Shown: positions 7,388-49,100 of the stretch, one piece after another | Numbering within the stretch: position 1 is the first letter of the stretch | Layout of the letters: each line of letters opens with the position of its first letter | NCBI GenBank assembly: GCA_001783215.1 | Contig: MFRA01000006.1 | Span: forward strand, 57,968 to 121,967 | Length of the DNA stretch: 64,000 nt | Reading direction: 5' to 3' | DNA from: Candidatus Magasanikbacteria bacterium RIFOXYD1_FULL_40_23 | GTDB lineage: Bacteria; Patescibacteriota; Patescibacteriia; Magasanikbacterales; GWA2-37-8 | Notes under the pieces: model-generated | What the model was told of the DNA's origin: nothing | Seen by the model: only the letters and a program-made list of their open reading frames with translations | Database searches by the model: none | Made by a program: the position numbers and the translations under genes

Positions 7388-7397
7388 TTAGTATAAT

Positions 7398-10439: not shown

Positions 10440-10454
10440 TTTCAGACATAGGAA

Positions 10455-10535: not shown

Positions 10536-10635
10536 CAATGTATAAATAGCCGCTTTGCGGTTATTTATTTTTTACTTCACTTTTTCTTGCGGAAATGGTA
10601 TTATTTAAAGAGTATTTAATTAATCTCTTTTTAGT

Positions 10636-10890
10636 ATGCGCATTGTAATTGGCTTTGTTTTAGCTGGGATTGGAGTTTTACTTATGCTTAAAACCGAGTG
10701 GTTTGTGCAAAATTTTGGCAGCAACGCTTGGGCCGAAGAGCATCTAGGCTCTAGCGGCGGTACTCGTTTGCTCGTTAAATTAATAGCCATTGCCTTTATA
10801 TTTTTTGGGTTTTTAGCTATCACCAATATGCATATGGGCTTTTTAGATGCCACACTCGGTAAAATTTTTAAACAGAACCAATCACTCTAA
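10636..10890 (+). CDS. small hypothetical membrane protein (2 TM)
   Basis: 84-aa ORF with two hydrophobic helices. No recognisable motif. Confidence 0.35.
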   Translation: MRIVIGFVLAGIGVLLMLKTEWFVQNFGSNAWAEEHLGSSGGTRLLVKLIAIAFIFFGFLAITNMHMGFLDATLGKIFKQNQSL

Positions 10891-10897
10891 CGATTTT

Positions 10898-11446
10898 ATG
10901 GCGCACTCCGGCACAGCCTTAATTGATCCATATAAAATATTTGAAAGAATCTCTTTGTCTGCAGGTCAGAGGGTGGCTGATTTAGGTTGTGGACGCACAG
11001 GTCATTTTGTTTTTCCAGCCGCAAAAGCGGTAACAGATAAGGGTGTTATTTACGCCGTAGATGTTGTAAAAAATATTTTGGAGAGCATAAAAAGCACTGC
11101 TCGCAGCGAAGGCTTTGATAATGTGCAAACTATCTGGTCAAACATTGAGCTTCCTGGTAAAACCCCAATTCCCGACGGCTCTCTTGACGTTTGTTTTTAT
11201 GTTAATGTATTATTTCAACTAAAGAACAAGCCGGGTGCCTTACAAGAAGGCGCTCGTATGTTGAAAAAAGGGGGCTACCTAGTAGTGGTTGATTGGGCAA
11301 AAAAATTAGGAATGCTTGGTCCTTCAGCAGATCTAATGGTAGACCCAGACGCTGTGGTAGAGGTTGCTACCAAACAAAATTTAAAATTTATAGACAAAAT
11401 GTTTCCAGGAGATTATCACTTTTCTTTAATCTTTGAAAAGGTTTAA
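10898..11446 (+). CDS. class I SAM-dependent methyltransferase
   Basis: SAM-binding motif I 'VADLGCGRTGH' and an acidic-loop motif 'IYAVDV'. The start is placed at the ATG at 10898 to avoid overlap with the upstream ORF; the ORF track begins at 10847. Confidence 0.65.
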   Translation: MAHSGTALIDPYKIFERISLSAGQRVADLGCGRTGHFVFPAAKAVTDKGVIYAVDVVKNILESIKSTARSEGFDNVQTIWSNIELPGKTPIPDGSLDVCFYVNVLFQLKNKPGALQEGARMLKKGGYLVVVDWAKKLGMLGPSADLMVDPDAVVEVATKQNLKFIDKMFPGDYHFSLIFEKV

Positions 11447-11469
11447 ATAATAATTTGTCATTCTGACCT

Positions 11470-11874
11470 ATGAATATAGCAAATCTGTTCCGTGTTGATT
11501 ATTGGTTCGTCCAGCCGTTTGTTGCCACAGGATTTTCTCTTTGGTTATTAATCGGAGGGTTTTTGGTTTTGGTTCTTGCTGGTTTGGTTTGTAAAATAGT
11601 TTCTTTGTATCAAGAAGAAAAATTTAAAAAAGTAATTTTGAAAAGATCTAGCCATTTGGCCATGACTATGGGTTTCTTGGGTTTGGTTTGGATGTTTTTT
11701 CGCCAAGAACAAGCAGTATTTTTATCCTGGCGTTTTTGGTTGCTTGTTTGGGTAGGCAGTTTTGCTTGGTGGACATGGTCTATTGTAAAGTATATAACAA
11801 AAAGAGTACCGGAAATCAGAACAGAAGAAGAAAGATTAGCGCGCATAGAAAAGTATTTGCCTAAAAATAAATAG
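11470..11874 (+). CDS. hypothetical integral membrane protein
   Basis: 134 aa, 3-4 hydrophobic segments, no motif. Confidence 0.4.
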   Translation: MNIANLFRVDYWFVQPFVATGFSLWLLIGGFLVLVLAGLVCKIVSLYQEEKFKKVILKRSSHLAMTMGFLGLVWMFFRQEQAVFLSWRFWLLVWVGSFAWWTWSIVKYITKRVPEIRTEEERLARIEKYLPKNK

Positions 11875-11890
11875 TGCGTAGTTTTAATTC

Positions 11891-12247
11891 ATGACCAGGC
11901 AAAATAAAAATTTGGGAGATTGGGGAGAGGCCCAGGCTTGTAGTTTTTTGGAGCGTCACGGATTTAAAATTATAGAGCGTAATTACCACACCACTATGGG
12001 TGAAATAGATGTCATCGCCACCAAAGGCGATGATTATTATTTTGTAGAAGTTAAAACCAGAAAGAATAGTGAATTTGCCAACGATGGTTCTATTACTTAT
12101 TTTAAAAAAAGACGCATGCAAAAAGCGGTTCGGGCATATTGTTATGCTAGGGATGTCGGCAATAAATCGCTTATCTTAGCGGGTTTGATTGTAGAAGTTA
12201 AAAAAATCGAAGGCAAGCTGGGTTTTCGTTTTTGCGTTATGTCTTAG
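11891..12247 (+). CDS. yraN: YraN-family (UPF0102) endonuclease-like protein
   Basis: 118 aa. 'GEIDVIA...YYFVEVKTR' core typical of YraN/UPF0102, a PD-(D/E)xK-like fold. Confidence 0.65.
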   Translation: MTRQNKNLGDWGEAQACSFLERHGFKIIERNYHTTMGEIDVIATKGDDYYFVEVKTRKNSEFANDGSITYFKKRRMQKAVRAYCYARDVGNKSLILAGLIVEVKKIEGKLGFRFCVMS

Positions 12248-12343
12248 GGGCGTATAATTCCAGGGTTGACTTTTTGGGCATTTTGTACTATTATTAACGA
12301 AAATAAGAGGTAAATAAGTCTTTAATTAAATAATGTAATTACT

Positions 12344-12946
12344 ATGTCACATCCATCCAAAGAAAGAACATTTGTGATGATCAAACCAGATGGCGTGCAA
12401 CGCGGACTCGTTGGCGAGATTATTAAACGTGTGGAACGAGTTGGGCTCAAAGTTAGCGCATTAAAAATGGTAGTGCCAACCGAAGAGCAGTGCTGGACAC
12501 ACTATAACAAAGACGAAGCTTGGTTTCTTAAAAAAGGCGAACGCACCATAAGCGACCGTCAATCATTAGGATTGCCTGTAGATAAGCCAGCTGTAGAATA
12601 TGGTAAAGATATTGTTCGAGCCTTGGTAAAATTTATGACCTCCGGTCCGGTAGTAGCTTTTGTGTTGTCTGGTAATCAGGCAGTAGGAATTGTTACAAAA
12701 TTAGTAGGAGGCACTGAGCCGCTCACATCGGACGTAGGTACTATCCGCGGCGACTTTACTCTTGATTCATACAATCTTTCCAGCCAAGATGAGCGTGCTG
12801 TGCGAAATTTGATTCATTGCTCCGATAAGCCAGAAGAAGCTGAACGTGAAATGAAGATCTGGTTTAAACCAGAAGAGATTATTAACTACCGCCAGCTAAA
12901 CGAAGAGATACTTTACGATGTAAATTTAGACGGGATTCTGGAATAA
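12344..12946 (+). CDS. ndk: nucleoside-diphosphate kinase with a ~45-aa internal insertion
   Basis: 'ERTFVMIKPDGVQRGLVGEII' N-terminus and the catalytic-His motif 'NLIHCSD'. 200 aa against the typical ~140. Confidence 0.8.
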   Translation: MSHPSKERTFVMIKPDGVQRGLVGEIIKRVERVGLKVSALKMVVPTEEQCWTHYNKDEAWFLKKGERTISDRQSLGLPVDKPAVEYGKDIVRALVKFMTSGPVVAFVLSGNQAVGIVTKLVGGTEPLTSDVGTIRGDFTLDSYNLSSQDERAVRNLIHCSDKPEEAEREMKIWFKPEEIINYRQLNEEILYDVNLDGILE

Positions 12947-25672: not shown

Positions 25673-25781
25673 GCAAAGTTGGTATATATTATTGGGGCTC
25701 TTAATTAGTTCTGTCACGAAACAGAATTAACTAAAAATCGTCACTTTTTTAATCAAAAATCTAAATTTGAATATTTATTGT

Positions 25782-26171
25782 ATGCTTACTATTCGTTTGC
25801 AAAGAATGGGAAAAAAGAATGCTCCGACTTATCGCTTGGTTATTGCCGAAAAAGGTAGAGATACTCAAGGCAGAAACCTAGAGATTTTGGGAACATTTAA
25901 TCCTCGCGCCAAAGAAAATGGTTTTGTGCCAAATGTAGACAGAATTAAGTTCTGGCTAGAAAGAGGCGCTCAACCTTCTCCTACACTTCACAACTTGTTT
26001 GTAGGTTCCGGTCTTATTACCGACAAAAAGAAAGCAAAGTCCGTTTATATTTCTGATAAACGAGCTAAGAAAATAGAAGAAAAGAAAAAGTCAGAAAAAC
26101 CAGCTGCTGCCGCTCCAGCACCAGTTGCTGAAGTCGCACCTGCTCCTGTCGAAGAGGCACCTGCTGCATAA
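25782..26171 (+). CDS. rpsP: 30S ribosomal protein S16 with an Ala/Pro-rich C-terminal extension
   Basis: 'MLTIRLQRMGKKNAPTYRLVIAEKGRDTQGR' bS16 N-terminus. C-terminal tail 'KPAAAAPAPVAEVAPAPVEEAPAA'. Confidence 0.85.
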   Translation: MLTIRLQRMGKKNAPTYRLVIAEKGRDTQGRNLEILGTFNPRAKENGFVPNVDRIKFWLERGAQPSPTLHNLFVGSGLITDKKKAKSVYISDKRAKKIEEKKKSEKPAAAAPAPVAEVAPAPVEEAPAA

Positions 26172-26290: not shown

Positions 26291-26626
26291 ATGGAAGCAG
26301 ATCAACAGTTTGTAGAGACACTCGTACGATCGATTGTCAACAACCCTGAAGATGTAAAGACAGTGCGCACCATAGATGAAAGAGGAGTTTTGATTACTTT
26401 GGATGTCAATCCAGCCGATATGGGCTATGTGATTGGTCGCCAGGGTCAAACTGCTCGTTCTATCCGCACCTTGCTCAAAATCGTTGGCGCAAAGCACAAT
26501 GCTCGCGTTAACCTAAAGATTAATGAGCCAGCTGGTGGAAGAGCTCCTCGTGTTAATCAAATGGATCACCAGCCAATGGACAACCAGATGATTGATACTA
26601 GTACTGTAGACAGCTTGAACATCTAG
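26291..26626 (+). CDS. KH-domain RNA-binding protein (YlqC/UPF0109-like)
   Basis: KH 'GYVIGRQGQTARSIRTLLKIVG' (GxxG loop). Conserved position after rpsP. Confidence 0.72.
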   Translation: MEADQQFVETLVRSIVNNPEDVKTVRTIDERGVLITLDVNPADMGYVIGRQGQTARSIRTLLKIVGAKHNARVNLKINEPAGGRAPRVNQMDHQPMDNQMIDTSTVDSLNI

Positions 26627-26722: not shown

Positions 26723-26758
26723 AAAACCACTCCGAGTAATCGGGGTGGTTTTGTTTTT
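26723..26758 (+). terminator. intrinsic terminator after the KH-protein gene
   Basis: aaaaCCACTCCGagtaatCGGGGTGGttttgttttt. Confidence 0.5.
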
Positions 26759-26832
26759 GAAGCTTTTGAGTACTTTGGCTTAAAACTTAATATTATCTAT
26801 GGTATAATATTAAAGGAGAAAATCGATTAGTT

Positions 26833-29800
26833 ATGGTCAAAATTATTAGAAATAGTCGGTCTGTTTTTTCGAAAATACTTTTTTTGGTATTATTTTTTGT
26901 TGTTACAAGTTTTTTCTCAAAGTATTTTTTCTTTAAACCATTACCAGCAAAAGGTTCTTGGCTGGCAACTACAACCTGGATTGGCACTGCGTCCACTGGC
27001 AATTGGCACGATCCTACAAAATGGGATAATGGCGTGCCTACCAGTACGATGCTTGCTATTATTGCTAGTAGCTCAGCTATCACTATTACTGCTACCACCA
27101 CGATTGAGTTTGATACCCTGCGTATTGGTGGTGGTGGGGGTACAGCCTCTTCAACACTTATTCTTGCTACCAATATTGGCGCAGGTGTAGATATAGATAT
27201 TAAAACGATGGGTAAAATTACTCAGAGTAGTACCGCGCAACAAACAATTTCTGGAACATTACTGATCGAAGATGGAGGTCGGCTTACACATTCTGGTAAT
27301 ACCACCGTACAAGCTCGCAGTGTAAATTTTAGGGCAAATACAATAACTGTAAATTCTGGTGGTGTAATTTTTGCTAGCAGTTTAGGATATGCGGGTAGTG
27401 CTGGGGGATCTGGTGAGCCTGGGCAAGGTCCTGGAGCCGGGCAATCTTCTGGTGTTATGGCAGAAGGTGGTGGCGGTGGCCATGGAGGTAGTGGTGCAGA
27501 TGATGGTACAAGTTCGGGTGGTCAAGGATATTGTGATATAACTAACTTAAACACGATAGGTTCCGGAGGCGGTGGTAATAGCTCGTGGGTGGGTACTGCG
27601 GGCGGTGGTCTGATTATTTTATCGGCGACAGGAACGATTACTATAAATGGCTCTATATTGGCTGATGGTGGTACAGGTGGTTCTTTTTCTGCGGGTGGTG
27701 GTGCGGGCGGAGGTATAAAAATAACTGCTGATGTTATAGCTGGTACTCCAAGTAAATTTTCTGCCGATGGTGGAGACACCAGCGGTGTTGGTGGAGGGGG
27801 AGGGTGTGTTTTTTTGGGTTATACAACATCCAATACTATTATTCCCACTTCGTCATATTTTTCAGTCAATGGAGGAGATGGGGATGGTGCTAGTGCTAGT
27901 CTTAACGGATCTGGAGGTATGGTCCTTGTTAAGCAAGATAGTGCTAATGGTAATTTGTATGTTTTAAATGATGTTCTTGTTCCGTCTGTTACCCAGCCCT
28001 CATCTACTGTACCAGCAATAACTGCAGATTTTATTTATGTTAGTAGTACAGTATTTCAAATTACTTCTACAAAAACATTTACCTTGGTAAATAGTGATCC
28101 TTTTTCCGGAAATGGTAGAGGTGAAATTAGAATATATGGAAGTATGGTGAAATCAGCCGGTGTTTTTGATAATGTAAATGATGTTGTTCTTACAATACAA
28201 TCTGGTGGAAGTGTTGCAGTGTCCTCTACGTTTACAGCCAGCTCATCTCTTAGTTTGTATAGAGGTTTTGTTGGTATTACAACTAACACGTTTACTAATC
28301 TTGTTATACAGTCAGGAACAACAACTGTGCACAATTACAGTACTTCCAGTGTGCCACTGACCGTTTCTAACTTAACAGTAAATGGAGGTATTTTTACTCA
28401 CGGAGTTAATTCGTCAACTCAAGATAATATTTTAAATGTTGCTGCTACTAGTAATATTACAGTAAATGCAGGCGGAACTATTTCTGCTAGCGGTACCGGT
28501 TATATTGGAGGTGTTGTGGGTAATGGGCTTGGTCAGGGTCCGGGTGGTGCTTCAAGTTCTCAGAGTAATACGGGCGCCGGAGGTGCTCATGGTGGAAACG
28601 GTGGAAATAATAGCGCAAGTATGGCTGGGCAGGGTTATTGTGATATATCCGATGTAACTACGATTGGTTCCGGAGGAGCCGGTTCTGTATCGGCAAGAGG
28701 TGGTGCGGGCGGCGGTCTTATTATTTTGTCCGCAACTGGTACAATTACCTTAGACGGTGTTATATCCGCCAATGGCGGAGCTGCCAACGATAGTTCGTCT
28801 GGCGGCGGCGGAGGTGGGGGGATTAAAATAACTGCTGATATTATAGCTGGCACTCCAAGTAAATTTTTTGCTGCAGGCGGGAGTCGTTCAAGCGGCAATA
28901 TTGGTGGCGGCGGTGGTGGGTGTGTAAATATATTTTACACCACTTCTAACACTATTTCTCCGACATCGTCTTACTTTTCAATTAGTGGAGGTGTTGGGAG
29001 AGGAACCGGTGTAGATGGTAGTGGAGGTATGGCGTTAATAAAACAAGTCGGTGTTGGTAATGGTGGTTTGTATGTTTTAAATGGTGCTATGGCTGCTTCT
29101 GCCATTACCCAACCCTCATCCACTGTACCAGCTATAACTGCAGATTTTATTTATGTTAGCAGTACAGTATTCCAAATCACTTCTACAAAAACATTTACTT
29201 TGGTAAACAATGATCCTTTTTCCGGAAATGGTAGAGGTGAAATTAGAGTGTATGGAAGCATGGTGAAATCATCAGGTGCTTTTGAAGAGATTAACGATAT
29301 TATTTTTACAATACGATCTGGAGGAAGTATATCTGTCTCTTCTACATTTACAGCTAGTTCATCATTGAATTTATATCGAGGATTTATTGGTACTGCATCC
29401 AATACATTTACCAATTTTATTATTCAATCGGGCACAACCACACTTTATGATTATAATACAAACACAGTGCCGTTGTTTGTAACAAATTTAACAATGAATA
29501 GTAGCAGTGTTTTTACTAATGCTACTAATACGACAGCGCAATCACATATTCTTTATGTGGCTGCGAGCAGTTCAATAACTATCAATGTTGGTGCTCGTGC
29601 TGTATCTAATGGACTAGGTTATGCTGGCGGCGCTGTAAATACGGTGGGTAGTGGTCCGGGTTTTGGATCGGCCACATCTAGCAAAGGCGGCGGCGGCGGA
29701 GCTCATGGTGGTAATGGTGGTGATGGTGCTTCTAGCGGCGGGCTTGGTGGTACAGCTTATTGTAATAGTACAAACCCTACCACAATTGGTTCTGGTGGTG

Positions 29801-31908
29801 GTGGTGGAAATGGGCAGGCGGGGGGATATGGGGGAGGTTTAATTATATTTTCAGCATCAAGCACTATTACTATTAGTGGTAGAATCCAAGCCAATGGAAA
29901 TAGTACAACCGCCAGTGGCGGCGGTGGCGGCGGTGGTGCTATTAGATTAGATGCTCCTACTGTTGCTGGCACCCCTCAAAGTTTTACTGCCAACGGAGGA
30001 AATGGTGGCAGTACTGGTGGTGGCGGTGGTGGTGGTGGTGGATGTATATTTATACGATATAGTGTATCCAATAGTGTAACTAGTAGTAGAGCTACAAGCA
30101 CTTTCGGTACTGGCGGTACAGGCATAGATGGTGTGGCTGGTACATTTGAAACTTTGCAGGTAGTTGTAGTACCTACAGTTACTGCTATTTTTCCTGTTCA
30201 AACCTCTACCAATATTGTGGTGGTTACTACTACAATCGCTGACTCAGAGTTAAATATTACTTCTTTAGCGGTTCTTTATTCTACCGATGGCACCACTTGG
30301 GTATCATCTACAATTGTTAGCGTAAGTCAGGGTGGAGTGGGCGATGGTGTTACAACTTCAACAGGTTTAATTTCTGGGATTGATACCGATGGCTCCGGTT
30401 CTATTAATCTTACATTTGAGTGGAATGCTGGTGTAGATATTTCTAGCACCGAAGACACGACTGTGTATATAAAAATTACACCAAACAACGGCACTTCAAA
30501 TGGCACAGCTGTCTCTTCCACAGCTTTTGCTGCAGATACCAAAGCGCCAACTGCGCCTGGTAGTCTTACCTTATTTAACACTTCAACTCAATCGGCAACT
30601 TTTACTTTTGGTTCTACTTCAACCGATTCAAACTTTGTTCAGTATATTATTTTTTATAAAACCGGATCTTCAAGCGTGGCTATTACTGACACAGCTTTCG
30701 CATCATCTAGCAATTCTAATTTGGGTTTTATAAATTATAACAGTGCCACCAGTACTACGGTTTCGGGTCTAGCCACTTCAACTCAGTATGTTTTTAATAT
30801 TTGGGCTTTTGATGGTTTTAGTAATACTCCTGCAGCAACAGAATCATCTTTTTATACTTTGGCAACAGTCCCTTTGGCACCCACACTTTCTAATCCAGCA
30901 ACATCTACAATAGATGTAACTATCGCATCCGGTGATACTAATCCAGCTGGTGTCACATATGCTATTCAAGAAGCTAGCTCTTCTAGTTATGTACAGAGCA
31001 ATGGAAGTTTAAGTGGTGCTGCTGTCTGGCAGAGTATTTCTACTTGGGGCACAGAAACAGTTACTGGTTTAAACCCTAATACAGGATATTATTTTAGAGT
31101 AAAAGCTAGAAATGGAAATAATGTGGAGACAGGCACATCAACGCAAAGTGCAATAAAATACACTCTAGCTTCTGTTCCTTCGTCGGTTGTAGCTGCGGCA
31201 GATAGTCAAACCCAAATAACTTTATCGTGGACTAGAGATGCAACTTCGTCCTATGCAGAAAATGTAACCGCTAGCACAACTTCGAGCTGGATTTCCGACA
31301 CGTCGTATGCATTTACTGGTTTAACTTGCGCTACAACTTATTTATTTAGAGTTAAAGCGATAAATGGTGAAGGTGTGGAAACTTCTTTTTCATCATCTGT
31401 ATCGGCTCAAACCAGTGCCTGTTCTAGTGATGAAAGTTCTGGTAGTAATAGTGGTGGTGTGGCATATCCAGTCACGCTCTCTCCTCCTCCGGTAGTAGTT
31501 TTGCCAACCCTGCCTGTTGTTGAACCAGAGATTATTGAACCTGAATCAGAAATTGTATATCCAGCAACTCCTACCATAAAGAATGTTCCACCTATCAAAA
31601 ATATTCCACCAAAGGTTCAACCTCCAAAATTAAATCCGTCGGTAAGCACGCCACCGCAAGCGACTGCTACAAAAATTATCCCAAAGCAAACTAGCACTAA
31701 AGAAGATGTTAAGCCGCCAACGGTATCAATCCCTTTAGAAAAAAAAGACACGCTTATTTCTACAACCGATAAAGGAGTGATAAAAAATACTTCAACCAAG
31801 AAGATGGTTGATGATCGTAAGGGCGATTTTGTTAGTAGGATAAATTTGGTCGCTGATAGTTTGTACCTGGCAATTTTGCGATTTTTCAGTTGGTTAAAGT
31901 GGTGGTAG
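26833..31908 (+). CDS. giant (1691 aa) glycine-rich beta-helix-like surface protein with internal tandem repeats, FN3 domains and a Pro-rich stalk
   Basis: N-terminal signal/TM, then three ~370-aa tandem repeats rich in GGxGG and 'GQGYCD...IGSGG'. FN3-like modules follow ('TYLFRVKAINGEGVETS', 'GYYFRVKARNGNNVETG'). Pro-rich region 'PPKVQPPKLNP'. Confidence 0.75.
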   Translation: MVKIIRNSRSVFSKILFLVLFFVVTSFFSKYFFFKPLPAKGSWLATTTWIGTASTGNWHDPTKWDNGVPTSTMLAIIASSSAITITATTTIEFDTLRIGGGGGTASSTLILATNIGAGVDIDIKTMGKITQSSTAQQTISGTLLIEDGGRLTHSGNTTVQARSVNFRANTITVNSGGVIFASSLGYAGSAGGSGEPGQGPGAGQSSGVMAEGGGGGHGGSGADDGTSSGGQGYCDITNLNTIGSGGGGNSSWVGTAGGGLIILSATGTITINGSILADGGTGGSFSAGGGAGGGIKITADVIAGTPSKFSADGGDTSGVGGGGGCVFLGYTTSNTIIPTSSYFSVNGGDGDGASASLNGSGGMVLVKQDSANGNLYVLNDVLVPSVTQPSSTVPAITADFIYVSSTVFQITSTKTFTLVNSDPFSGNGRGEIRIYGSMVKSAGVFDNVNDVVLTIQSGGSVAVSSTFTASSSLSLYRGFVGITTNTFTNLVIQSGTTTVHNYSTSSVPLTVSNLTVNGGIFTHGVNSSTQDNILNVAATSNITVNAGGTISASGTGYIGGVVGNGLGQGPGGASSSQSNTGAGGAHGGNGGNNSASMAGQGYCDISDVTTIGSGGAGSVSARGGAGGGLIILSATGTITLDGVISANGGAANDSSSGGGGGGGIKITADIIAGTPSKFFAAGGSRSSGNIGGGGGGCVNIFYTTSNTISPTSSYFSISGGVGRGTGVDGSGGMALIKQVGVGNGGLYVLNGAMAASAITQPSSTVPAITADFIYVSSTVFQITSTKTFTLVNNDPFSGNGRGEIRVYGSMVKSSGAFEEINDIIFTIRSGGSISVSSTFTASSSLNLYRGFIGTASNTFTNFIIQSGTTTLYDYNTNTVPLFVTNLTMNSSSVFTNATNTTAQSHILYVAASSSITINVGARAVSNGLGYAGGAVNTVGSGPGFGSATSSKGGGGGAHGGNGGDGASSGGLGGTAYCNSTNPTTIGSGGGGGNGQAGGYGGGLIIFSASSTITISGRIQANGNSTTASGGGGGGGAIRLDAPTVAGTPQSFTANGGNGGSTGGGGGGGGGCIFIRYSVSNSVTSSRATSTFGTGGTGIDGVAGTFETLQVVVVPTVTAIFPVQTSTNIVVVTTTIADSELNITSLAVLYSTDGTTWVSSTIVSVSQGGVGDGVTTSTGLISGIDTDGSGSINLTFEWNAGVDISSTEDTTVYIKITPNNGTSNGTAVSSTAFAADTKAPTAPGSLTLFNTSTQSATFTFGSTSTDSNFVQYIIFYKTGSSSVAITDTAFASSSNSNLGFINYNSATSTTVSGLATSTQYVFNIWAFDGFSNTPAATESSFYTLATVPLAPTLSNPATSTIDVTIASGDTNPAGVTYAIQEASSSSYVQSNGSLSGAAVWQSISTWGTETVTGLNPNTGYYFRVKARNGNNVETGTSTQSAIKYTLASVPSSVVAAADSQTQITLSWTRDATSSYAENVTASTTSSWISDTSYAFTGLTCATTYLFRVKAINGEGVETSFSSSVSAQTSACSSDESSGSNSGGVAYPVTLSPPPVVVLPTLPVVEPEIIEPESEIVYPATPTIKNVPPIKNIPPKVQPPKLNPSVSTPPQATATKIIPKQTSTKEDVKPPTVSIPLEKKDTLISTTDKGVIKNTSTKKMVDDRKGDFVSRINLVADSLYLAILRFFSWLKWW
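27298..30140 (+). repeat. about 2.5 intragenic tandem repeats of ~1.11 kb inside the giant CDS
   Basis: Repeat units start near 27298, 28408 and 29527. Stretches such as 27990-28160 and 29105-29275 are about 95% identical at the nucleotide level. Confidence 0.85.
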
Positions 31909-32090
31909 ACTTTTTTGTGTTAGTTAGTTGGTTTGTTAGCTAGTGGACGGACAATTGATAGTTTTTCTGATTTTGGTTATAGTGTTGTAGTAATATTATC
32001 GTATATCAGATAGGGGCTTCGCCACATATATTCTCATTCGCTCGAAAATAATTAAAAAGAGTTTAATTATTTTGCTCACTCATTTCGATT

Positions 32091-32783
32091 ATGAAATTCG
32101 ATATCCTTACAATCTTCCCAAAGTTTTTTGAAAGCTTTAAAACAGAAGCTTTAATTTTACGCGCACAAAAAAAGGAATTAGTTGAAATCAATATTCATAA
32201 CCTGCGCGATTATGCCGATGATGCGCGTGGTACAGTAGATGATAGGCCATACGGCGGTGGGGCTGGAATGGTGCTTATGTTCCCGCCAATTTATAAAGCC
32301 ATAGAAAAAATAAAATCAAAGATAAAAGGAAAAAGTAAAAAAACCAAAATAATTGTTTTTAACCCAAAAGGAAATAAATTTACTCAAGCCATGGCGCGCG
32401 AGTGGTCTAAGTTAGATAGAGTAGTTATGGTTTGTGGTCGCTACGAAGGTATAGATGAGCGAGTTATGACAGAGCTCGCCGATGAAGAAATATCTATCGG
32501 AGATTATGTTTTGTTTGGCGGTGAAGTGCCTGCCATGGTAGTTATGGAAGCAGTTACCAGACTGATACCTGGCGCTATTGGTAAACAAGAATCACTTAAA
32601 GACGAATCGTTTAATGATGCGGGAGAAATGGGTAGGGAACAGTTAACAAAATTTATTGAGTATCCTCATTATACTAGACCGGAGGTTGTGGTTGTAAAGA
32701 AGAAGAAAGTAAAAGTTCCGGAAGTTTTGCTTTCCGGTGATCATAAAAAAATAGAAGAGTGGCGAAGAGAGCAGAGTAAGTAA
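32091..32783 (+). CDS. trmD: tRNA (guanine37-N1)-methyltransferase
   Basis: Classic 'MKFDILTIFP' start and the SPOUT-knot region 'SIGDYVLFGGEVPAMVV'. Confidence 0.88.
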   Translation: MKFDILTIFPKFFESFKTEALILRAQKKELVEINIHNLRDYADDARGTVDDRPYGGGAGMVLMFPPIYKAIEKIKSKIKGKSKKTKIIVFNPKGNKFTQAMAREWSKLDRVVMVCGRYEGIDERVMTELADEEISIGDYVLFGGEVPAMVVMEAVTRLIPGAIGKQESLKDESFNDAGEMGREQLTKFIEYPHYTRPEVVVVKKKKVKVPEVLLSGDHKKIEEWRREQSK

Positions 32784-32986: not shown

Positions 32987-33640
32987 TCAGCGAGCAATCT
33001 TGAGGCCGAGATGGCTCAGGGCTCGTATCGTGGTGGTGACGGCCGAAGGTTCGGAGATCGAACCATTCATCACCATCTCGAGCCATTGCTCGAGTGAGAC
33101 AAGCCGAGTCTCGATGTCTTCGTTCTCGTCCAGCTTGGCGGGTCCGACCTTCTTGCAGCCGGTTGCCAGGAAGCAGTGGAAGCGGGTGGGTGAGCTACGA
33201 GTGCTAATCCAGCCGAAGCCCAGATAGACCATGAGCTCGGGTACGTAGCCAGTCTCATCGCGTAGTTCGCGACGCATCACCTCTTCGGGAGATTCGCCAA
33301 ACTCCGCAGTTCCTGCCGGTAACTCGTCATCGACGGCATTGCGTCCCTGCTTGAACTCAGACACCACCAGCACCTGCCCGTCGCTGGTGATGGCAAGGCA
33401 GACGGACCAGTCGCGTTGGGCGAACTGCACGTAGTCTTGGATCTTGCCCGACTTCGGGTTAAGGAACTGTTTGACGATGAGCTTCTTGCCGAACTTGCCG
33501 GCCAGAGTCACATCTTCGCCGACTTGTTTCCAGGGCACGATTGCCATTGTGCTCTCCAGTTTGCGTGAGGGTTGGCTGCTTTCAGTGAGTGCAAAGCGCT
33601 CGCGCCGAAAGACCCTGCACAATATCATAAAAACCGTCAT
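32987..33640 (-). CDS. NUDIX hydrolase (high-GC, compositionally foreign)
   Basis: Nudix box 'GTAEFGESPEEVMRRELRDETG'. About 60% GC against ~37% locally. The true start may be the internal Met ('MAIVPWK', ~33547). Confidence 0.7.
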   Translation of the reverse strand: MTVFMILCRVFRRERFALTESSQPSRKLESTMAIVPWKQVGEDVTLAGKFGKKLIVKQFLNPKSGKIQDYVQFAQRDWSVCLAITSDGQVLVVSEFKQGRNAVDDELPAGTAEFGESPEEVMRRELRDETGYVPELMVYLGFGWISTRSSPTRFHCFLATGCKKVGPAKLDENEDIETRLVSLEQWLEMVMNGSISEPSAVTTTIRALSHLGLKIAR

Positions 33641-33726: not shown

Positions 33727-34113
33727 TTAGACACTTAAAAACTAAGTAAAAAACCTGCAAATAAAGCACCTCAAAAATTAATTAACTTTGGCAAGTCTCA
33801 ACGCGAGAAACTACCAGTGCTACAACCTACAAATTTTTTTGTAGAGTAGCCGAGAGAAAAGAGCAATCAAGATTTGATTTCTCTTTTTTCTTTCTAGTCA
33901 GGTAACTGGAAAGAAAAAAGTTTTCCAAATGTAAAAATATTGGAAAAGTACATTGACAACACAAATGTGACAAAGACCACAAAAAAAGTCTATCCGAAAA
34001 AACTCGGGTTATTCCGAGTATAAATAATAAATAAATCCAAAAATGATAACTTGTTCATCAGCCCTTGCAGCTTCGGCTGTGTAGGGTGAACAAAAATCAA
34101 TACTCTTTTTTTA

Positions 34114-35732
<1,619 letters not shown>

Positions 35733-38414: not shown

Positions 38415-38488
38415 GGGCATGTAGCTCAGTTGGTTAGAGCGCGTCACTGATAATGACGAGGTCCCAAGTTCAACTCTTGGCATGCCCA
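38415..38488 (+). tRNA. tRNA-Ile (anticodon GAU)
   Basis: GGGCATGTAGCTCAGTTGGTTAGAGCGCGTCACTGATAATGACGAGGTCCCAAGTTCAACTCTTGGCATGCCCA: canonical Ile(GAT) sequence and cloverleaf. Confidence 0.92.
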
Positions 38489-38497
38489 CACGAAAGG

Positions 38498-38571
38498 GGG
38501 TTCGTAGCTCAGTTGGTTAGAGCGTCGCATTGACATTGCGAAGGTCAGCCGTTCAAGTCGGCTCGGACCCA
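38498..38571 (+). tRNA. tRNA-Val (anticodon GAC)
   Basis: Acceptor GGGTTCG/CGGACCC, anticodon arm TCGCA-TTGACAT-TGCGA, T-arm AGCCG-TTCAAGT-CGGCT, discriminator A. Confidence 0.8.
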
Positions 38572-38674
38572 CAGTTAGAGCGTATCCCACGACGTTTTTT
38601 TGCTGTTTTGCCTAACTTGCAAAAGCTCGAATTTTCATGTAGTATAAGCATACTTAAATTATCTGGATTTTATT

Positions 38675-41086: not shown

Positions 41087-43111
41087 ATGCTTCAATGGAT
41101 GCGAGAAAAATTTGTTCTAACTCTGAAAATCGCCATAACTACGATTGTGTTTTTATTGGCGATTTTTAGTTTCTCGCCCCCAGCTCACGCCCAAAGCATA
41201 GCCGATGCAGATAGTGAATTGCAAACCGGTGTACAGGTTATCAATCAGCCCTTAGGCCTCGCCTCTACCGACATTAGATTGGTAGTAGCCAGAATAATTC
41301 GCGTGGCTTTAGGATTTCTTGGTACCGTAGCTTTAGCCCTGATGATTTATGCCGGTTATTTGTGGATGACAGCCGGTGGAAATGAAAGTCAGATAGAAGA
41401 TGCAAAAAGAGTTTTAATAAATGCAGCTATTGGTTTGGCTATTATTCTTAGCGCATACGCTATTGTTAGTTTTGTAATTAGCAAATTAGTAGACGCTACT
41501 TTGGGTAATGGTTTTGGAGGAGATAATTTAGTTTTAGAACCACCAATATCAGAAAATTTCCAGGGCAGCGGCGCGTTGGGTCAGATTGTAAAGGATCATT
41601 ACCCTTCACGAGACCAATCCGAAGTTCCTAGAAACACTCGAATTATTGTTAGTTTCCGCCAGCCAGTTAGGTTGGATAGTTTCGTAGACGACACTACCGG
41701 CGATGGTGTGCTTGGAAATTGTAGAACTACTGTGGCAAATTGGTATAACGATTGCGATAGATTACGAAATGTGAGTGATAATTTAATAAATATTAAGCGC
41801 GCAGACAATAACGAGAGTATTTTTGGTGCAGTTGTTTTGGGTACAGTTACAACCGAAAATAATATTACCGGTGTATATACGATAGTGATTAAGCCTATTA
41901 CAGACGCAGCCAATCCTGGCGGAGGATACTTGGGTAGTACCAACGAACCAGTTAGCTACATTGTTCATATGGGTCCAGGCATGTTGTTAGATGATCCTGC
42001 CAACAATAACCCTTCTGTATTTAGAGCAACTATTTTGGGTAACAATTATTATGAATGGAGATTTACAAATGGCACAGCCCTAGATATTTCTCCTCCAACT
42101 GTAACGAGTGTATTTCCAGAAGACGGAACTACCGAAGATAAAAATAGTGTATTGCAAATTAATTTTAATGAACCAGTAGACCCAATTGGTATTACTGGCA
42201 GATTTAATCAGGGAGCTGGCCACTATTATTTAGATGGTCAAAATGTTTTTCTAAAATCAAATAACAGCGCTTTGCCCCAAGGTAATTTTAGTTTAACCAA
42301 TGGTTACCGTACTTTGGAATTTGCGCCTTCGCAAGAATGCGGAAGAAATGCTTGTGGAAATAGAGTGTTTTGTTTACCTGTTTGTGATGTGGCCGGTGCC
42401 AATTGTACTCAGGATGGCTACGAAGTGCTGCTGCGCGCAGCCAGAACAATAAATGCAGGCTCGTTCGAATCTCAACCGTTTTCCGGTATTACTGATTTAG
42501 CTGGCAATGCTTTGGATGGAAATAGAAATAATATTCCAAATAACGCACCTACCACTTTGCCGATTTTCCCAAATCAAAAACAACCAGATAACTATTTCTG
42601 GGATTTTACAATACGAAATCAAATAAATACCTCCTCTCCATTTATACAAACTATCGTACCGGGAGTTGATGCGCAAAATATTAGCCGCAACCAAGAGTTG
42701 AGCATGACATTTAATAAAAGAATGCGTGCAGAAACAATGTATAATATTGGTTTAGAAGAACAGCCAACGCATCCGGTTCCTATTTGGAGAGTGCCTTCTG
42801 TTTTGTTTAATGAAGACGATACTACTTATACACGATTAGGTCATGGACCGTTTTTGGATGCAATAAGACAGTATTATTTTACAGTAGTTAGCTCTACTGT
42901 AGAGGATGTTCATTTTAATTGTTTTTATCCTGGCAAGGGTCCGAGAATGACAGTAATTCCAAATACTGTTATTTCTCCAAATTGTGAAGATTCAAATCCG
43001 CAGAATTGTTGCCAAGTAATAAATGATCAAAACAGTGATTTTTGTTGCAATGGCTCAGCTGGTCCAAATATGTCGGCCTGTATGGATTATTTAAGACAAA
43101 ATAGTATTTAA
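41087..43111 (+). CDS. large secreted protein (674 aa): signal peptide + VirB2/TrbC-like two-TM 'T4SS pilin' module + Big/Ig-like extracellular domains
   Basis: Signal 'IFSFSPPAHAQS'. Pilin-like module 'IIRVALGFLGTVALALMIYAGYLWMTAGGNESQIEDAKRVLINAAIGLAIILSAYAIVSFVISKL'. Big-like domain 'PPTVTSVFPEDGTTEDKNSVLQINFNEPVD'. Cys-rich C-terminus. Confidence 0.75.
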   Translation: MLQWMREKFVLTLKIAITTIVFLLAIFSFSPPAHAQSIADADSELQTGVQVINQPLGLASTDIRLVVARIIRVALGFLGTVALALMIYAGYLWMTAGGNESQIEDAKRVLINAAIGLAIILSAYAIVSFVISKLVDATLGNGFGGDNLVLEPPISENFQGSGALGQIVKDHYPSRDQSEVPRNTRIIVSFRQPVRLDSFVDDTTGDGVLGNCRTTVANWYNDCDRLRNVSDNLINIKRADNNESIFGAVVLGTVTTENNITGVYTIVIKPITDAANPGGGYLGSTNEPVSYIVHMGPGMLLDDPANNNPSVFRATILGNNYYEWRFTNGTALDISPPTVTSVFPEDGTTEDKNSVLQINFNEPVDPIGITGRFNQGAGHYYLDGQNVFLKSNNSALPQGNFSLTNGYRTLEFAPSQECGRNACGNRVFCLPVCDVAGANCTQDGYEVLLRAARTINAGSFESQPFSGITDLAGNALDGNRNNIPNNAPTTLPIFPNQKQPDNYFWDFTIRNQINTSSPFIQTIVPGVDAQNISRNQELSMTFNKRMRAETMYNIGLEEQPTHPVPIWRVPSVLFNEDDTTYTRLGHGPFLDAIRQYYFTVVSSTVEDVHFNCFYPGKGPRMTVIPNTVISPNCEDSNPQNCCQVINDQNSDFCCNGSAGPNMSACMDYLRQNSI

Positions 43112-43128
43112 GGAGTAAAATTAGAGGA

Positions 43129-46100
43129 GTGGAAATTATGGAAAAAAATAAGTTTAAAAAAATAATAATTGCATCTTTATTCTCGGTTTTGGTAACCGGT
43201 AGTTTGTTTTTTCTAAAAGATTTAGTTTTTGCTCAAACTATAAGTAGTACAGAATTGGGATTGGGTCAAATAGAAGCGCCTCTTGGATTGCCATCTACAG
43301 ATATCAGAATAGTGGTGGCTAGAATTATTCGTGTTGCGTTAAGCTTGCTCGGAACAGTAGCGCTAGTTCTAATGTTGTATGCAGGGTTTGTCTGGATGAC
43401 TGCCGGTGGAGAGGCTTCAAAAATTGAAGACGCAAAAAAAATAATGGTTAATGCCGCTATTGGTTTGGCTATTATTTTGTCTGCTTATGCAATTACAAGT
43501 TTTGTAATTAGTAAATTAGTAGATGCCACAACGGGTGGGCCGGGAAGTGGTACAGGTGGGCCAGGGCCAGGGGATAACCCATATCTTCCACCTGGAATTT
43601 TTTATGTTGATAATTTGCCGCAAGGTGGACAAATGTGTATTCGCAATGTTCACCCAGCAATCACATTTAATAGGCAGGTAGATTTGGCCACTCTCAGTGG
43701 CAATTTAGTAGTGAGAGAAGCTAATGGCAATGTATATCCGGGGCAGTGGCAGTCATTGGGTCAGAATACCGTAGCATTTGTACCAACCGGAGATTGTGGC
43801 GGCGGTCCAGCCGACTGTTTTGCGCCTTCTACAACCTATAATGTGCATTTCCAAAATGCAGCTTCAATCAGGTCTAGCGAGGGCAATCTTACGCTTAATT
43901 GTACATTTAGAGCGGGTTGTGGAGATGTACAATTTATTACCGGCAATGGCGTAGATAGAACCGCTCCTCAGGTAAGAATAGAGCCTATTTCTAGTGATTT
44001 ATTGCGTGTTGGCACAACCGTACCAGTGGTGGTTAGTTATACCGACGACAACGGCGTGCAAAAGATAGATTTATCGGCTGATACTTATTTTGTTGGCAGT
44101 CAAACAGTATCGGGTTGTCAAAGCACAGGCTCTGTTACTATAAATTGGCCGACAGTTGGAATTCCTACCGGCCAGCATACTTTATATGCTACAGGTTTTG
44201 ATTGGTCTGCATTAAATTACACCACTTCTACAAATGTTAATCTGTTACCGCAACATTGTTTTGATAATGCCTTGCAAGCAGATTTGGGTGAAGTTCGGGT
44301 AGGCCCACCAGCTTGTGGAGGAGAATGTGGTGCTTGTTCTGGTACGCCTTGTACCAATAATACTCAATGTGCCAGCGGGTACTGTGATACGCTTTCAGGA
44401 GTTTGTGTAGATAGAATGAGGATAAATGGTGTTTCTCCTCTTACCGGCGGGCCAGGGACATTTGTTTCTATTTCAGGAAATTATTTTGGTAACACACCCG
44501 GTAGAGTTTTTATAAATAATGTACTAGCACCTTTGGCGCCTTGCGGAGGAAGTGCTTGGTTGCCATGGCAAATAATTACAGAAGTGCCTGCGGGTGCAAG
44601 TACCGGTCCGATTAGAGTAGAAACTGCCACTAGTAGTGGTACAAGTTTTGTAGATTCTACCAACGATGCCTTTGGTCCGATGATTAGTAATTTTACAGTT
44701 GACAATGTTGTTCGTCCTGGTTTGTGCGGTGCTACTCCAGCCAACGGCTTGCCTGGTTCAGAAACTTCTCTTTCCGGCAGGCGTTTGGGTAATTCTCCAG
44801 GGCAAGTATCTTTTGGTATAAACAATGTAGTAGTAAGTTTGGCAAACTGGGCAGATACTTTGGTGCGAGCCAGGGTACCAATGGGTGAAGTTGGTCCGGT
44901 AGCAGTAAAAGTTATTCAAAATAATGTAGAAAGTAATAGTATTAGATTTTTTGTAGAGCAAGGGGTTAGCGATTCTGTGGCAGTAATTTCTAGCGTATCC
45001 CCAGATCATGGGGCTAGGGGAGAGTATATTACTATTACCGGTAATAATTTTGGTAATCAAATAGGAAGAGTTTGGTTTAAAGAAAATATTAATGGTCAGC
45101 CAGGAGATGCAATAGATGGTGATTTTAGTTTTCCGCAAGGATGTCAAAGTACCTGGACAAATAATCAGATAATTGTAAAGTTTCCTCTTGGTAGTGGTAC
45201 ACCAGGAAGATCTTATTTTGTGCAGGTACGTCCAGCCGATGCTTCTCAAGGTCCAAGCCCAATAGGTCCCACATTTAATTTAGAAAATGGCCAACCTTCT
45301 CCTGGTATTTGTAATATTAATCCAGTGTCTGGTCCGGTGCCGTTTCCTGGCGCTGCGCCTCGTATGCAAATTGTTGGAGAGTATTTCGGCGCAACCCCAG
45401 CTGTTTATTTTTGGACAGAAGGCGCTTCGCCAACCGCTATAACTGGTCGTTTATTGTCCGGTTTAGCCACGGTTACCAATTTAGTTGTTGGACAATCTAT
45501 TTCCACAGAACCTCCAGCCGGTACTCGTACCGGTCCGGTAGTTGTATTTAGAAGTTCAGATAATAAAATAAGCAATCCGGCAAATTTTTCTGTATTAGAC
45601 TGCGTAAGAAATAATAATACTTGTACAGCTCCAAATACCCATTGTTGTGTGTCTGGCGCAGAAGCTGGGTTGTGTCGACCAACTAACCAGCTGTGTGCAG
45701 GAGAAACCATTACGGCTGGATATATTTGGCGTTTTAGTACCAGAGATATTCCACCGGTTCCTCGTGTAGTAGAAAGATGTAATAACAATACAGATTTAGG
45801 ACTAAATATTCCTAGCCCATCCCCAAGTATTTTATGGGATTCTTCTGCTGGTGACCCTCATCATAATGTTTGTCGAAGCGCTACTGTCGTAACAGAATTT
45901 AGTTTGCCAAACATAAACAATATTGCTAGAACCAATTTATTAGTTAATGAATGCCAGGCAGACACAATAAATGAAACATCTAGAACATGTACAGTTGCAC
46001 AAGTAGTGCCTATGGCAGGTGCTGGGGATTTTGTGCCGCAACTTAGCACAGAAAATACAAGTTATTTAGAATTAAATCCAGACGCTACTTATAATACAGG

Positions 46101-49100
46101 CAAGTGGAAAGATAATACTTGGTATCAGGTGGTGTTAAGGTCTGCAATAAGTTCAGGTACCGGCACCTCCACTGCTTTTTTGGCGCAAGACAAGCCTTGT
46201 GGTCCGGGATCTTCATACTGTTTTGTGTTCCGATCGGATTCTCAGGATTGTAGAATGAGAAGTGTGGTAATAACGCCGTATACTTATTGGACTTCGGTTT
46301 TGGAAGCTCCTATTAAGAAAAGAAATAGCGTAGATGATGTAGGTGTTGATGTGGTTTATAATGGTCACGGTTTGAGCACACAACATTGTGTTATGATGAA
46401 TACAGATGCGTTTGCTTGGTCCTGGGATACCAGTAACCCGACTTACTCAAGTCTTTTTGTCACAGATAATTCTTGGGCCAAATTTGCGGCCTGGGCTAAT
46501 ACGGTGGGTGTTGGTTTAGTTAACCCAAATAATGCTGTTAATGTAAGAGCTACTGCTAGTCTGGCTTCAGCAAACTATACTGGTGTTAGTTCGCTTACTA
46601 TAGATTTAAATAATCCAGAGGTTGTAGATTTTTGGCCTAAATGTTTGCAGTCATGTACAAATGCCGAAGTGGGTGTTCGTTTTAATACCACCATGTCAAC
46701 CAGAAACCTACCAGGTTCAGCAGTTAGCGGCCCGATTAAATTATTAAGGTGTAATGATGAAAATTGTTTTAACACTACACCAGTACTTTCTTCTTCGGAT
46801 GTAATTTTGGACAGTACCGGTGATTACAGAGTATTAAAATTAGCAAACTCTGTTTCTGGCTCATTAGAGTTGTTGCCAAACACTGTTTACAAAGTTGTCT
46901 TGTCTGTTTCTACAACCAATATTAATTCCCCAGAGTTACTATGGTCGGCAGCTGTTATAGGAGATCCGACTACTTTTTCTAAGCCATATAACAAAGAATT
47001 TAGTTGGAGATTTAAAACCAAAGCAGATAGATGTAGAATTGCCAAGGTAGATGTAACACCAAATATTTTTACAGCTTCTTTTATTACCGATAAAAATATT
47101 TATAGCGCTCAGCCATACTCTTCTCCAGACACTTGTAGTACTCAAGGTCAAAAATTAAATCCTTGGTCTGTTAGTTGGAATTGGAGTTCTGCCCAACCAC
47201 AAGTAGCAAGCATAACCACTTTTAGTTCCAGAGGGAACAATCCTTTCTGCACTTTAAGTTGTACGCGCAAAGGTAGTAGTATTGCAGCCGGTTCTCCGTC
47301 AGTACCAGTTTGTGGAAATAATGTAGTAGAAGCTGGAGAAAATTGCGATTCACCAAATAGAGGCGCTGGCTGTAGTTTGGATTGTCGTAGATTAGGAAAT
47401 ATGAGCAGTTCTACTTGTGGTAATGGTGTTATTGAACCTAACTTGGGAGAAACATGTGATCGCGGTTCTGCTACTTCGTCCATAGGCTGTAGTGATGTTT
47501 GTTTGCACACTGGTTCTTCTAATACCACAGCCCCTGGAGCGGTTAATGCTTCCATTTGTGGAAATGGCATGGTTGGTAGTGGAGAAGATTGTGATGTTGC
47601 AGTTTCGCAGTCTGGAAACACATTATTAAATGGTTTAGTAGGCTGGTGGACTATGGATGCTGCAGATGCAAATGCTACACAAGTCTTTGATAGAAGTGGA
47701 AATAATAATGTTGCAAGTATATTTGGTCCAACAATCGCCACAGGAACGGTCGGCGAAGCAAGGGTTTTTGATGGTGTCGATGATTATCTTTCTCTCCCAA
47801 CACCAAGAGCCAATACCACCACTATTTCTCTGTGGTATAAGACCAATACCATAGTTTTACCTAATAATCATAAAATGTTATTTTCTGGTAGTGTTAATGC
47901 TACTTACATAAGTTTATTTTCAAATGGTGTAGCTAACCCGTTTGTTTCTTTTTGGATTGGAAACACCCAAAGAACATTGAGCAGCGGTGTTCCTTCGGTA
48001 GTAGGCAAATGGACACATGTTATAGTTACTTGGGATGGTGCATTTATTAGGATTTATGTAGATGGAATTCTTAGAAATACTAGCGCCAATTTTTCCGGAG
48101 CTGCTTTAGTCGGCTTAGATTCTGGAGTGGGGTATATTGGTAAGTATCGGGCAAATAACGGTTATGAAACATCTGGCTCTATAGATGATGTGCGAATTTA
48201 TAATCGTGTTCTTTCGGCTGCCGAAATTACTTCCCTTCATCAGTACGGTCAAAATATTATAAATCAATCAACTGGTTGTTCCGAAAGATGTTTGCATTTA
48301 GGTACGCCTATATCTAGTAGTTGGTGTTTTACCAATAATGCTACTCGGGGTGGCTTTTCTCAGACAGACTTTACAGCTGCTTGTAGAAATTCTATTAGTC
48401 GTTGCGGTAATGGTGTGGCCGATCCAGACGAAGATGTTGGTTGTGATTTGGGAGGAGGCAACAAAGCTTCCTGGTGTAATATTTATTGTTTAGCAAACAA
48501 TATTTCTAATCCAGAGTGTGCCGTTGGTGCTGAAGGTTGTAATAGTGTTCGTCAGCATATTGGTTCGTCACTTCTTTACTCAACGCCTTCTCTTTGTGGA
48601 GATGCGGTAGTTGGAATTGGTGAAGATAATTTCTGTGAAACTACTTTGCCAAATACACACACTGGCACTAATCCTTGGGCATTAGTTACCGGAGTAGGAA
48701 GAGGTATTGCTACCGGCGTACCGCCAACTCAAGTTGCATATATTCAAGCCAATACCTCAGATGGAACCGCGAGTGGTCCGGTTGGTGATAGTGGTCAGTT
48801 TGTTATTCCTTGCGGCTATACTTCCGATGCAGAGTGCCAATCTAGAATGGGTGCTGGCTGGGGAGTTGCTACAAACGGTTGTTGTTATTTGCGTCCGCAG
48901 CTAGTTAGCGTTACTCCAGGCAGTACTTCTACAAACCGATTTAATATTTGCCCAAACACTGCCATAGAAGCTTTGTTTGATCAAGATATGGATGTGGGCA
49001 GCGTAATAAATAATGTAGTAGTAGCCCGCGGAACAACGTCTACTTCTTGTGGTGCCAACGAAGATGTCACATCTCTAGCGCTGCTATTAGAAGATGGAAA

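Follow-up and report, generated by a model that had tools for sequence, protein, structure and literature searches.

A giant putative surface-protein gene between khpA and trmD in a Magasanikbacteria genome: probable accessory cargo at a locus without rimM

The canonical trmD operon of E. coli, Bacillus and other bacteria has the gene order rpsP-(khpA/ylqC)-rimM-trmD-rplS. In the 64-kb stretch of DNA analysed here (hereafter, the window), whose source organism is Candidatus Magasanikbacteria, a member of the Candidate Phyla Radiation (CPR/Patescibacteria), the position expected for rimM is occupied by a giant gene encoding a protein of 1691 aa. This raises the question of whether the giant gene was inserted in place of rimM into a ribosomal operon, as the initial annotation had supposed, or stands there for other reasons. 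The results make it likely that rimM was lost, as in nearly all CPR bacteria, and that the giant gene is a self-contained accessory cargo situated between two transcription units and coding for a surface protein.

The list of open reading frames (ORFs) together with the Pfam search of the window clearly showed the order rpsP, khpA, giant ORF and trmD, all on the + strand. The rpsP gene for ribosomal protein S16 (25767..26171; Pfam Ribosomal_S16, E 3.8e-17) is followed by khpA encoding a KH-domain RNA-binding protein (26291..26626; Pfam KH_KhpA-B, E 3.3e-22), by the giant gene with its ATG start (26833..31908), and by trmD (32091..32783; Pfam tRNA_m1G_MT, E 2.8e-54). KhpA was also matched by NCBIfam PRK00468 (E 2.4e-18), with 66 bits lying under the 106-bit cut-off. 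The giant gene is separated from khpA by 206 nt and from trmD by 182 nt, and the whole khpA-trmD interval comprises 5464 nt. The identical giant protein in the same neighbourhood was found on at least five independent metagenome contigs and in the NCBI metagenome-assembled genome (MAG) GCA_001783315.1; it has been deposited as 'hypothetical protein A2563_05240' of Candidatus Magasanikbacteria RIFOXYD1_FULL_40. Its identity on at least five contigs indicates that the giant ORF is a real gene and not a chance ORF. Both the gene order and the 1691-aa ORF of the initial annotation were thus borne out.

The Pfam scan of the window covered all ORFs of at least 100 aa, except for shadow ORFs lying inside a longer gene of the other strand. 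No scanned ORF matched RimM (PF01782), PRC-barrel, PF05239 or PF24986, in agreement with the initial annotation, which had seen no rimM-like ORF in the window. A RimM domain hidden within the giant region or overlapping it was looked for and not found: the giant ORF contained neither a RimM N-domain nor a PRC-barrel (at E <= 0.01, Pfam returned only fn3/FN3-like matches, and NCBIfam nothing relevant). A RimM remnant in other frames was likewise rejected, as phmmer with the RimM of the Bacilli locus L094 against the six-frame translated window gave only noise (E >= 0.5). The same Bacilli locus served as a positive control, and its RimM, encoded directly 5′ of trmD, was detected with an E of 2.6e-16.

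Furthermore, the neighbourhoods of related species were fetched via TrmD homologues, and a second scan, with one genome per GTDB species, gave 80 loci. RimM was found within 10 kb of trmD in none of them, the Bacilli control L094 excepted, and in none of the 28 ORFs lying in the khpA-trmD slots of related species (Pfam). A divergent RimM was also considered for the slot ORFs of 270, 223, 164 and 84 aa (L008, L009, L012 and L010, respectively) and rejected, a scan at E <= 10 having returned NUDIX or nothing. According to the literature, RimM is 'missing in most CPR genomes' (Méheust et al. 2019, PMC6744442), and rimM is nearly absent from the CPR, whereas outside it the conservation exceeds 90% (Mol Biol Evol 2025, PMC12641178), the two surveys covering thousands of CPR genomes independently. 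The loss of rimM is a CPR phylum-wide trait, already reported, and is not peculiar to the window genome. It might still be argued that rimM was relocated elsewhere in the genome or has diverged beyond recognition, the slot being freed by its move; the 64 kb examined and the wording of Méheust et al., who say 'most' and not all CPR genomes (PMC6744442), speak for this. We hold it to be very improbable, since the window contains no RimM/PRC domain, the neighbourhoods of trmD in the 80 species are equally devoid of RimM outside the control, and two independent surveys report its near-absence (PMC6744442; PMC12641178).

The comparison with relatives was also informative regarding the slot itself. 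In 67 of the 80 species loci, khpA precedes trmD on the same strand, and the median gap between them is 137 nt; this gap is at most 250 nt in 45 of these loci, between 316 and 694 nt in 7, and between 805 and 2176 nt in 15. All but one of the 22 gaps exceeding 250 nt contain ORFs, and the 28 ORFs found there are unrelated, with Pfam matches to NUDIX, GNAT, YkuD, AbiEii, subtilase, sigma-70, DUF218 and other families. In the closest relative, L007 (TrmD and KhpA both 93% identical to those of the window), 150 nt separate khpA from trmD, and both rimM and the giant gene are missing. The slot holds a NUDIX-like ORF of 270 aa in L008 (TrmD 88% identical), an unrelated ORF of 223 aa in L009, one of 84 aa in L010 and a Cys-rich one of 164 aa in L012, and it is empty in L011, a Yanofskybacteria genome. 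The window interval of 5464 nt exceeds the maximum of 2176 nt among the 67 species loci, and comparable or larger intervals were found only in L013-L015. The prevalence of short gaps and the unrelatedness of the ORFs in the longer ones allow us to conclude that the khpA-trmD interval is normally empty and sometimes holds unrelated cargo. Because rimM is absent with or without the giant gene in the slot, the giant gene most likely did not displace it. The idea of an adhesin inserted in the place of rimM is therefore not supported by the comparison: CPR relatives devoid of the giant gene are devoid of rimM too, as seen in L007 and in the 45 of 67 gaps that do not exceed 250 nt. Nor did the operon comparison reveal relatives combining the same arrangement with rimM, as none of the 28 slot ORFs is a RimM; it did reveal three loci with orthologues of the giant gene.

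The second line of evidence concerns transcription signals. A predicted intrinsic terminator of rpsP-khpA (26723..26760, + strand) was found by the terminator scan, its hairpin (26723-26752) lying 97 nt past the khpA stop codon and consisting of a 13-bp stem, AAAACCACTCCGA/TCGGGGTGGTTTT, followed by GTTTTTG. Of 16 relatives, 15 have an equivalent hairpin with a T-run 12-49 nt after khpA, irrespective of the content of their slot, and RNAalifold on an alignment of 14 relatives' hairpins gave 11 pairs, six of which show compensatory double changes. Between this hairpin and the giant gene lies a promoter-like site (26780..26808, + strand) composed of TTAAAA, a 17-nt spacer and TATAAT with an upstream TG (extended −10), with 10 of 12 positions matched in the scan; the GGTATAAT block is kept 5′ of the orthologues in L013, L014 and L015. 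It is followed by the Shine-Dalgarno-like AAAGGAGA (26814..26821, + strand), read from the sequence 11 nt 5′ of the ATG. A further promoter-like site (31955..31983, + strand; TTGATA, a 17-nt spacer and TATAGT) was found by the scan in front of trmD, and its hexamers and spacing are the same in L007, which is without the giant gene.

Judging from these signals, the hairpin after khpA would terminate transcription, and the promoter in front of the giant gene would be in use. The conserved terminator, the giant gene's own promoter and ribosome-binding site, and the separate trmD promoter thus suggest that rpsP-khpA and trmD form separate units in this clade. The giant gene would be a self-contained cassette, most likely transcribed as a unit of its own from a gap that tolerates insertions. 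The alternative put forward in the initial annotation, namely that an adhesin gene was inserted for rimM in a ribosomal operon and is co-transcribed with rpsP, khpA and trmD, strongly and constitutively, draws on the common strand of the four genes, on their gaps of 206 and 182 nt, on the absence of a terminator-like site between the giant gene and trmD, and on the fact that some terminators leak. We judge it improbable: the 13-bp GC-containing hairpin with its T-run stands between khpA and the giant gene, all but one of 16 relatives have its counterpart, and covariation affects 6 of its 11 pairs; moreover, a conserved promoter-like site and a ribosome-binding site belong to the giant gene itself, and rimM is missing regardless of this gene. 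The claim of strong constitutive expression from a ribosomal operon thus found no support in the predicted signals.

CPR genomes are small and densely packed, with large surface-protein genes placed beside housekeeping genes. Given that CPR bacteria lack rimM and have packed genomes, no special explanation is needed for a giant gene at the rimM slot. In the explanation that we prefer, rimM would be absent, as in nearly all CPR bacteria, and not displaced; the old rpsP-khpA-rimM-trmD operon would have been reduced to two units, rpsP-khpA with its conserved terminator and trmD with its own promoter. The space from terminator to promoter would tolerate foreign or accessory genes, so that the cargo varies by species, and in the window lineage and three more distant relatives this cargo would be the giant gene, equipped with a promoter and a ribosome-binding site of its own.

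These three relatives carry the top homologues of the giant protein, P0124 (2189 aa), P0123 (2634 aa) and P0125 (2579 aa), which are 57-63% identical to it over ~1520 residues and whose genes all sit between khpA and trmD (contigs L013, L014 and L015). Their S16 is 70-72% and their KhpA 81-86% identical to those of the window, vs. 85-90% and 93-95%, respectively, for L007/L008, where the giant gene is not found. Giant-gene remnants in the insert-less relatives were sought and rejected, as tblastn against 95 loci (L001-L095) matched only L001-L006 and L013-L015. This patchy distribution could mean that the gene was present ancestrally and lost several times, or that it was exchanged laterally. 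In L014 (14592-15086) and L015 (11678-12322), trmD is only 47% identical to the window TrmD, with khpA at 81-86%, and it is separated from the giant gene by additional ORFs; on its trmD side, the slot seems to have undergone replacement or rearrangement in these two relatives.

It is conceivable, if rather doubtful, that the giant gene is a recent horizontal cassette, exchanged among Magasanikbacteria by recombination via the khpA/trmD flanks, and not an old resident lost in the closer relatives. Its absence from the closest loci L007 and L008 (S16 85-90%) together with its presence in L013-L015 (S16 70-72%) would fit such a transfer, as would the promoter that it carries and the mere 47% identity of the L014/L015 trmD beside it, a sign that the neighbourhood recombines. 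On the other hand, the 57-63% identity of the giant proteins matches the S16 divergence (70-72%) for a fast-evolving surface protein, the insert-less loci contain no remnant or scar, and the Pfam scan detected no mobility gene near the giant gene. More remote members of the family (~38-40% identity) sit at other loci, L096 and L097. In L096, from another Magasanikbacteria MAG (3516-12929), the gene for P0153 (1891 aa, paralogue-level) stands between rpsB-tsf and gap-pgk, 15 nt 5′ of gap, and is preceded by a hairpin with a T-run and by the TGTTATACT −10 box, which points to a self-contained gene cassette. In L097, the family member comes after a Vut_1 transporter gene.

We turn now to the product of the giant gene. 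Its first 40 residues (26833..26952), comprising a K/R-rich start, ILFLVLFFVVTSFF... and PLPAKG, look like a signal peptide or a membrane anchor; the hydrophobic stretch of ~20 residues and the PLPAKG motif are kept in the orthologues P0123-P0125, as judged by eye from the sequence and alignment. Then come three Gly-rich modules, matched by a hidden Markov model at aa 133-365 (27229..27927; 331 bits), aa 502-735 (28336..29037; 360 bits; the copy that was modelled) and aa 874-1104 (29452..30144; 314 bits). Modules 1 and 2 are each followed by a beta-rich spacer of ~135 aa, spacer 1 at aa 366-501 (27928..28335) and spacer 2 at 29038-29451, both belonging to repeat family D1, also seen in the protein alignment, and sharing 84% DNA identity over 300 nt. 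The repeat period is 1107-1116 nt, 372 aa corresponding to 1116 nt. About three FN3 domains occupy aa ~1240-1527 (30550..31413), as Pfam fn3 (PF00041) matched three stretches with an E of 3e-15 and 56.6 bits vs. a cut-off of 25, the best stretch being aa 1448-1523; FN3-like families matched weakly at aa 1294-1340 and 1352-1428, and the giant ORF had no other Pfam match. A Pro-rich stalk follows at aa ~1550-1640 (31480..31752), with 15 and 7 Pro in its 50-aa blocks. The protein ends in a hydrophobic/amphipathic tail, INLVADSLYLAILRFFSWLKWW (31834..31905), a putative anchor. All these features lie on the + strand, and both termini were read from the sequence. LPXTG is not present at the C-terminus (...RKGDFVSRINLVADSLYLAILRFFSWLKWW); P0123 and P0125 have a clear transmembrane segment and a charged tail at their C-termini.

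One contig, L006 (3403-7362), carries a 1319-aa version, which is without exactly one 372-aa period (aa 422-793; window 28096-29211) and otherwise identical. It was not accepted as proof of repeat-number variation because the coverage of this contig is 2.5x, and the contigs L003 and L004 break within the repeats at aa 1016; an assembly collapse is as likely here as a true allele.

With this architecture, the protein would be located on the cell surface. It would be exported via its N-terminal signal or anchor sequence and probably held to the cell by the C-terminal hydrophobic tail, with the three ~235-aa all-beta Gly-rich modules distal, then the FN3 domains and the Pro-rich stalk; the whole fits a cell-surface fibre with the Gly-rich modules facing outward. 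Cultivated Patescibacteria live attached to host cells. Considering this lifestyle along with the architecture, a role as an adhesin or in host recognition is most likely, and the fibre would attach the bacterium to a host cell or to a substrate, which would suit an epibiotic member of the CPR. The initial description of the protein was sustained: it is secreted-looking, with Gly-rich beta repeats, FN3 domains and a Pro-rich stalk, and beta-helix-like holds as a sequence pattern but not as membership of a known beta-helix family (best Foldseek E = 2 against PDB).

The Gly-rich module of ~235 aa has the motifs GY..G.GPG, GG.HGG.G, YC, GSGG, GGGLI, GGG.I, GTP and GGGGC. Invariant or at least 90% conserved columns include H85 (in GG.HGG.G), Y101 and many Gly, and the close orthologues share C102 and C196 without exception. 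When the module profile was run against 1.84 billion cluster representatives, it matched 12,469 proteins at E <= 1e-3, of which 3,589 reached E <= 1e-30; the top 150 by score have 1-7 kaa and 3-12 module copies. Many patescibacterial giants carry 2-3 N-terminal copies followed by differing C-terminal domains, and 'beta strand repeat-containing' proteins of Verrucomicrobiota, Planctomycetota, Acidobacteriota, Myxococcota and Elusimicrobiota carry 5-9. No Pfam match gives the module a family name. The AgmC N-terminal domain (NCBIfam NF047640) was rejected, since it matched only aa 935-1088 with 20.6 bits (E 1.8e-4) vs. a 275-bit cut-off, and a literature search on AgmC yielded no productive lead. 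Searched against PDB sequences, the profile gave only spurious spike-protein matches (E > 0.2).

The structure of the module was predicted by AlphaFold2 (AF2). The first model, built for module plus spacer from 12 sequences, had a predicted local distance difference test score (pLDDT) of 58 with the spacer at low confidence, and its fold matches were not trusted. The second model, of module 2 alone with 45 diverse sequences, reached a pLDDT of 95.0 and a predicted template modelling score (pTM) of 0.92. It is all-beta with short strands and long, ordered Gly-rich loops, and residues ~51-127 are confidently placed without regular secondary structure. Foldseek with this pLDDT-95 model found nothing significant in PDB (best E = 2, TM-score < 0.2), the weak matches being parallel beta-helix proteins such as pectate lyase 3 and Ag43. 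In BFVD, a set of predicted viral structures, six matches had E <= 1e-3, the best one with E 1.3e-7 and a query TM-score (TMq) of 0.57; these are Gly-rich proteins, either uncharacterized or named 'collagen-like', from prasinoviruses, Pandoravirus and Orpheovirus, and uncultured phages come just above the threshold. Judged by this model, the fold of the module is uncharacterized, and its membership of a known beta-helix family is unsupported.

Several points weigh against the explanation that we prefer. The search for rimM in the window genome has a scope of 64 kb. The terminator and promoter scans apply E. coli-type rules to a CPR organism. No terminator-like structure was found by the scan between the giant gene and trmD, and the two may be co-transcribed; read-through from rpsP-khpA into the giant gene may also occur. 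The giant gene is patchy, being present in the window and L013-L015 and not in the closer L007 and L008. Finally, the adhesin role receives no direct support from PDB folds (best Foldseek E = 2) or from named families.

Other features of the locus and its surroundings deserve mention. S16 has an Ala/Pro/Glu-rich C-terminal extension of ~45 aa, and KhpA has one of ~35 aa (…QMDHQPMDNQMIDTSTVDSLNI) that is kept in L007. Farther upstream of rpsP, Pfam detected genes for SMC, a DHH phosphoesterase and ClpP. On the 3′ side of trmD, an opposite-strand NUDIX gene is followed by 16S rRNA; rplS is not found there, and the window ORFs scanned with Pfam contain no Ribosomal_L19 match. The NUDIX hydrolase gene (32987-33640, − strand), just 3′ of trmD, lies in a patch of 58% GC vs. 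~40% around it and is probably foreign DNA; the NUDIX-like gene in the khpA-trmD slot of L008 is another one and differs from it. A 14-nt GC-rich motif, GGCGAAGCCCCTAT, lies within ~35 nt of similar sequence near the slot both in the window (32010-32023, − strand) and in L013 (~5700-5715, + strand), that is, in opposite orientation; a repeat family in the window was rejected, as there is one exact copy only. The 16S rRNA gene (34107-35730) is 1624 nt long vs. a 1533-position model, with ~90 nt of insertions and no adjoining 23S rRNA gene, and it is followed by small ORFs without assignment and by tRNA-Ile/tRNA-Val (38415-38572).

Three more giant genes of 674, 2470 and 1167 aa are found on the + strand at 41087-54205. 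The 674- and 2470-aa proteins have VirB2/T4SS_pilin-like N-termini and Big_5 domains, the latter also TIG, Big_7 and Laminin_G_3, and for the 1167-aa one Laminin_G_3 was the sole match besides a weak one to Sialidase. L007 and L008, both of which end within the cluster, also have its first two genes. This cluster resembles the VirB2-like pilin arrays described for Patescibacteria (PMC12102498). Next to it, at 54217-55464, are two neighbouring genes for small secreted-looking proteins with bacterial TSP3 (thrombospondin type 3) repeats.

Giant surface proteins such as this one are prime host-recognition candidates in organisms thought to live attached to host cells. Two modest leads emerge. The khpA-trmD interval is a small variable site that might be used in Patescibacteria as a marker of accessory content at the strain level, and the Gly-rich module represents a large unnamed domain family, whose confident predicted structure has neither a fold match nor an experimental counterpart.

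When compared to known systems, the giant protein shows likenesses at several levels. It shares the conserved motifs of the Gly-rich module family and matches the full-length profile in three copies (314-360 bits), and, like patescibacterial members generally, it has variable domains, here FN3, after its N-terminal modules, whereas proteins from other phyla carry 5-12 copies. The viral Gly-rich/'collagen-like' proteins of BFVD are its only significant fold matches (E 1.3e-7 to 3e-4, TMq 0.41-0.57), but sequence identity is 17-25%, and all of them are predicted structures of uncharacterized proteins and so offer no clue to function. The parallel beta-helix adhesins and tailspikes (Ag43, PfbA, Hap, pertactin, pectate lyase 3), which led the non-significant PDB matches, share its all-beta, repetitive, elongated and presumably extracellular character, yet neither a significant structure or sequence match nor a Pfam beta-helix or autotransporter family connects the giant protein with them. 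It has no autotransporter, two-partner secretion (TPS) or LPXTG module for secretion or anchoring, and the lack of LPXTG likewise sets it apart from sortase-anchored proteins; with FN3-containing bacterial surface proteins it shares the FN3 domains.

As for the gene cluster, the window shares with the canonical trmD operon the order and strand of rpsP, khpA and trmD, and differs from it in having neither rimM nor rplS, in the 5.1-kb accessory gene between predicted units, and in the khpA terminator and trmD promoter, which split the cluster into two predicted units. The CPR-wide loss of the ribosome biogenesis factors RimM, RimP and RsfS has been described (Méheust et al. 2019, PMC6744442; PMC12641178), and the window shows the same trait at the very locus where rimM would be expected. 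Those surveys give presence or absence per genome and not the content of the khpA-trmD interval, which here usually holds nothing and sometimes variable cargo. The arrangement in the window belongs with the giant repeat surface proteins of CPR bacteria, which are of an already known kind.

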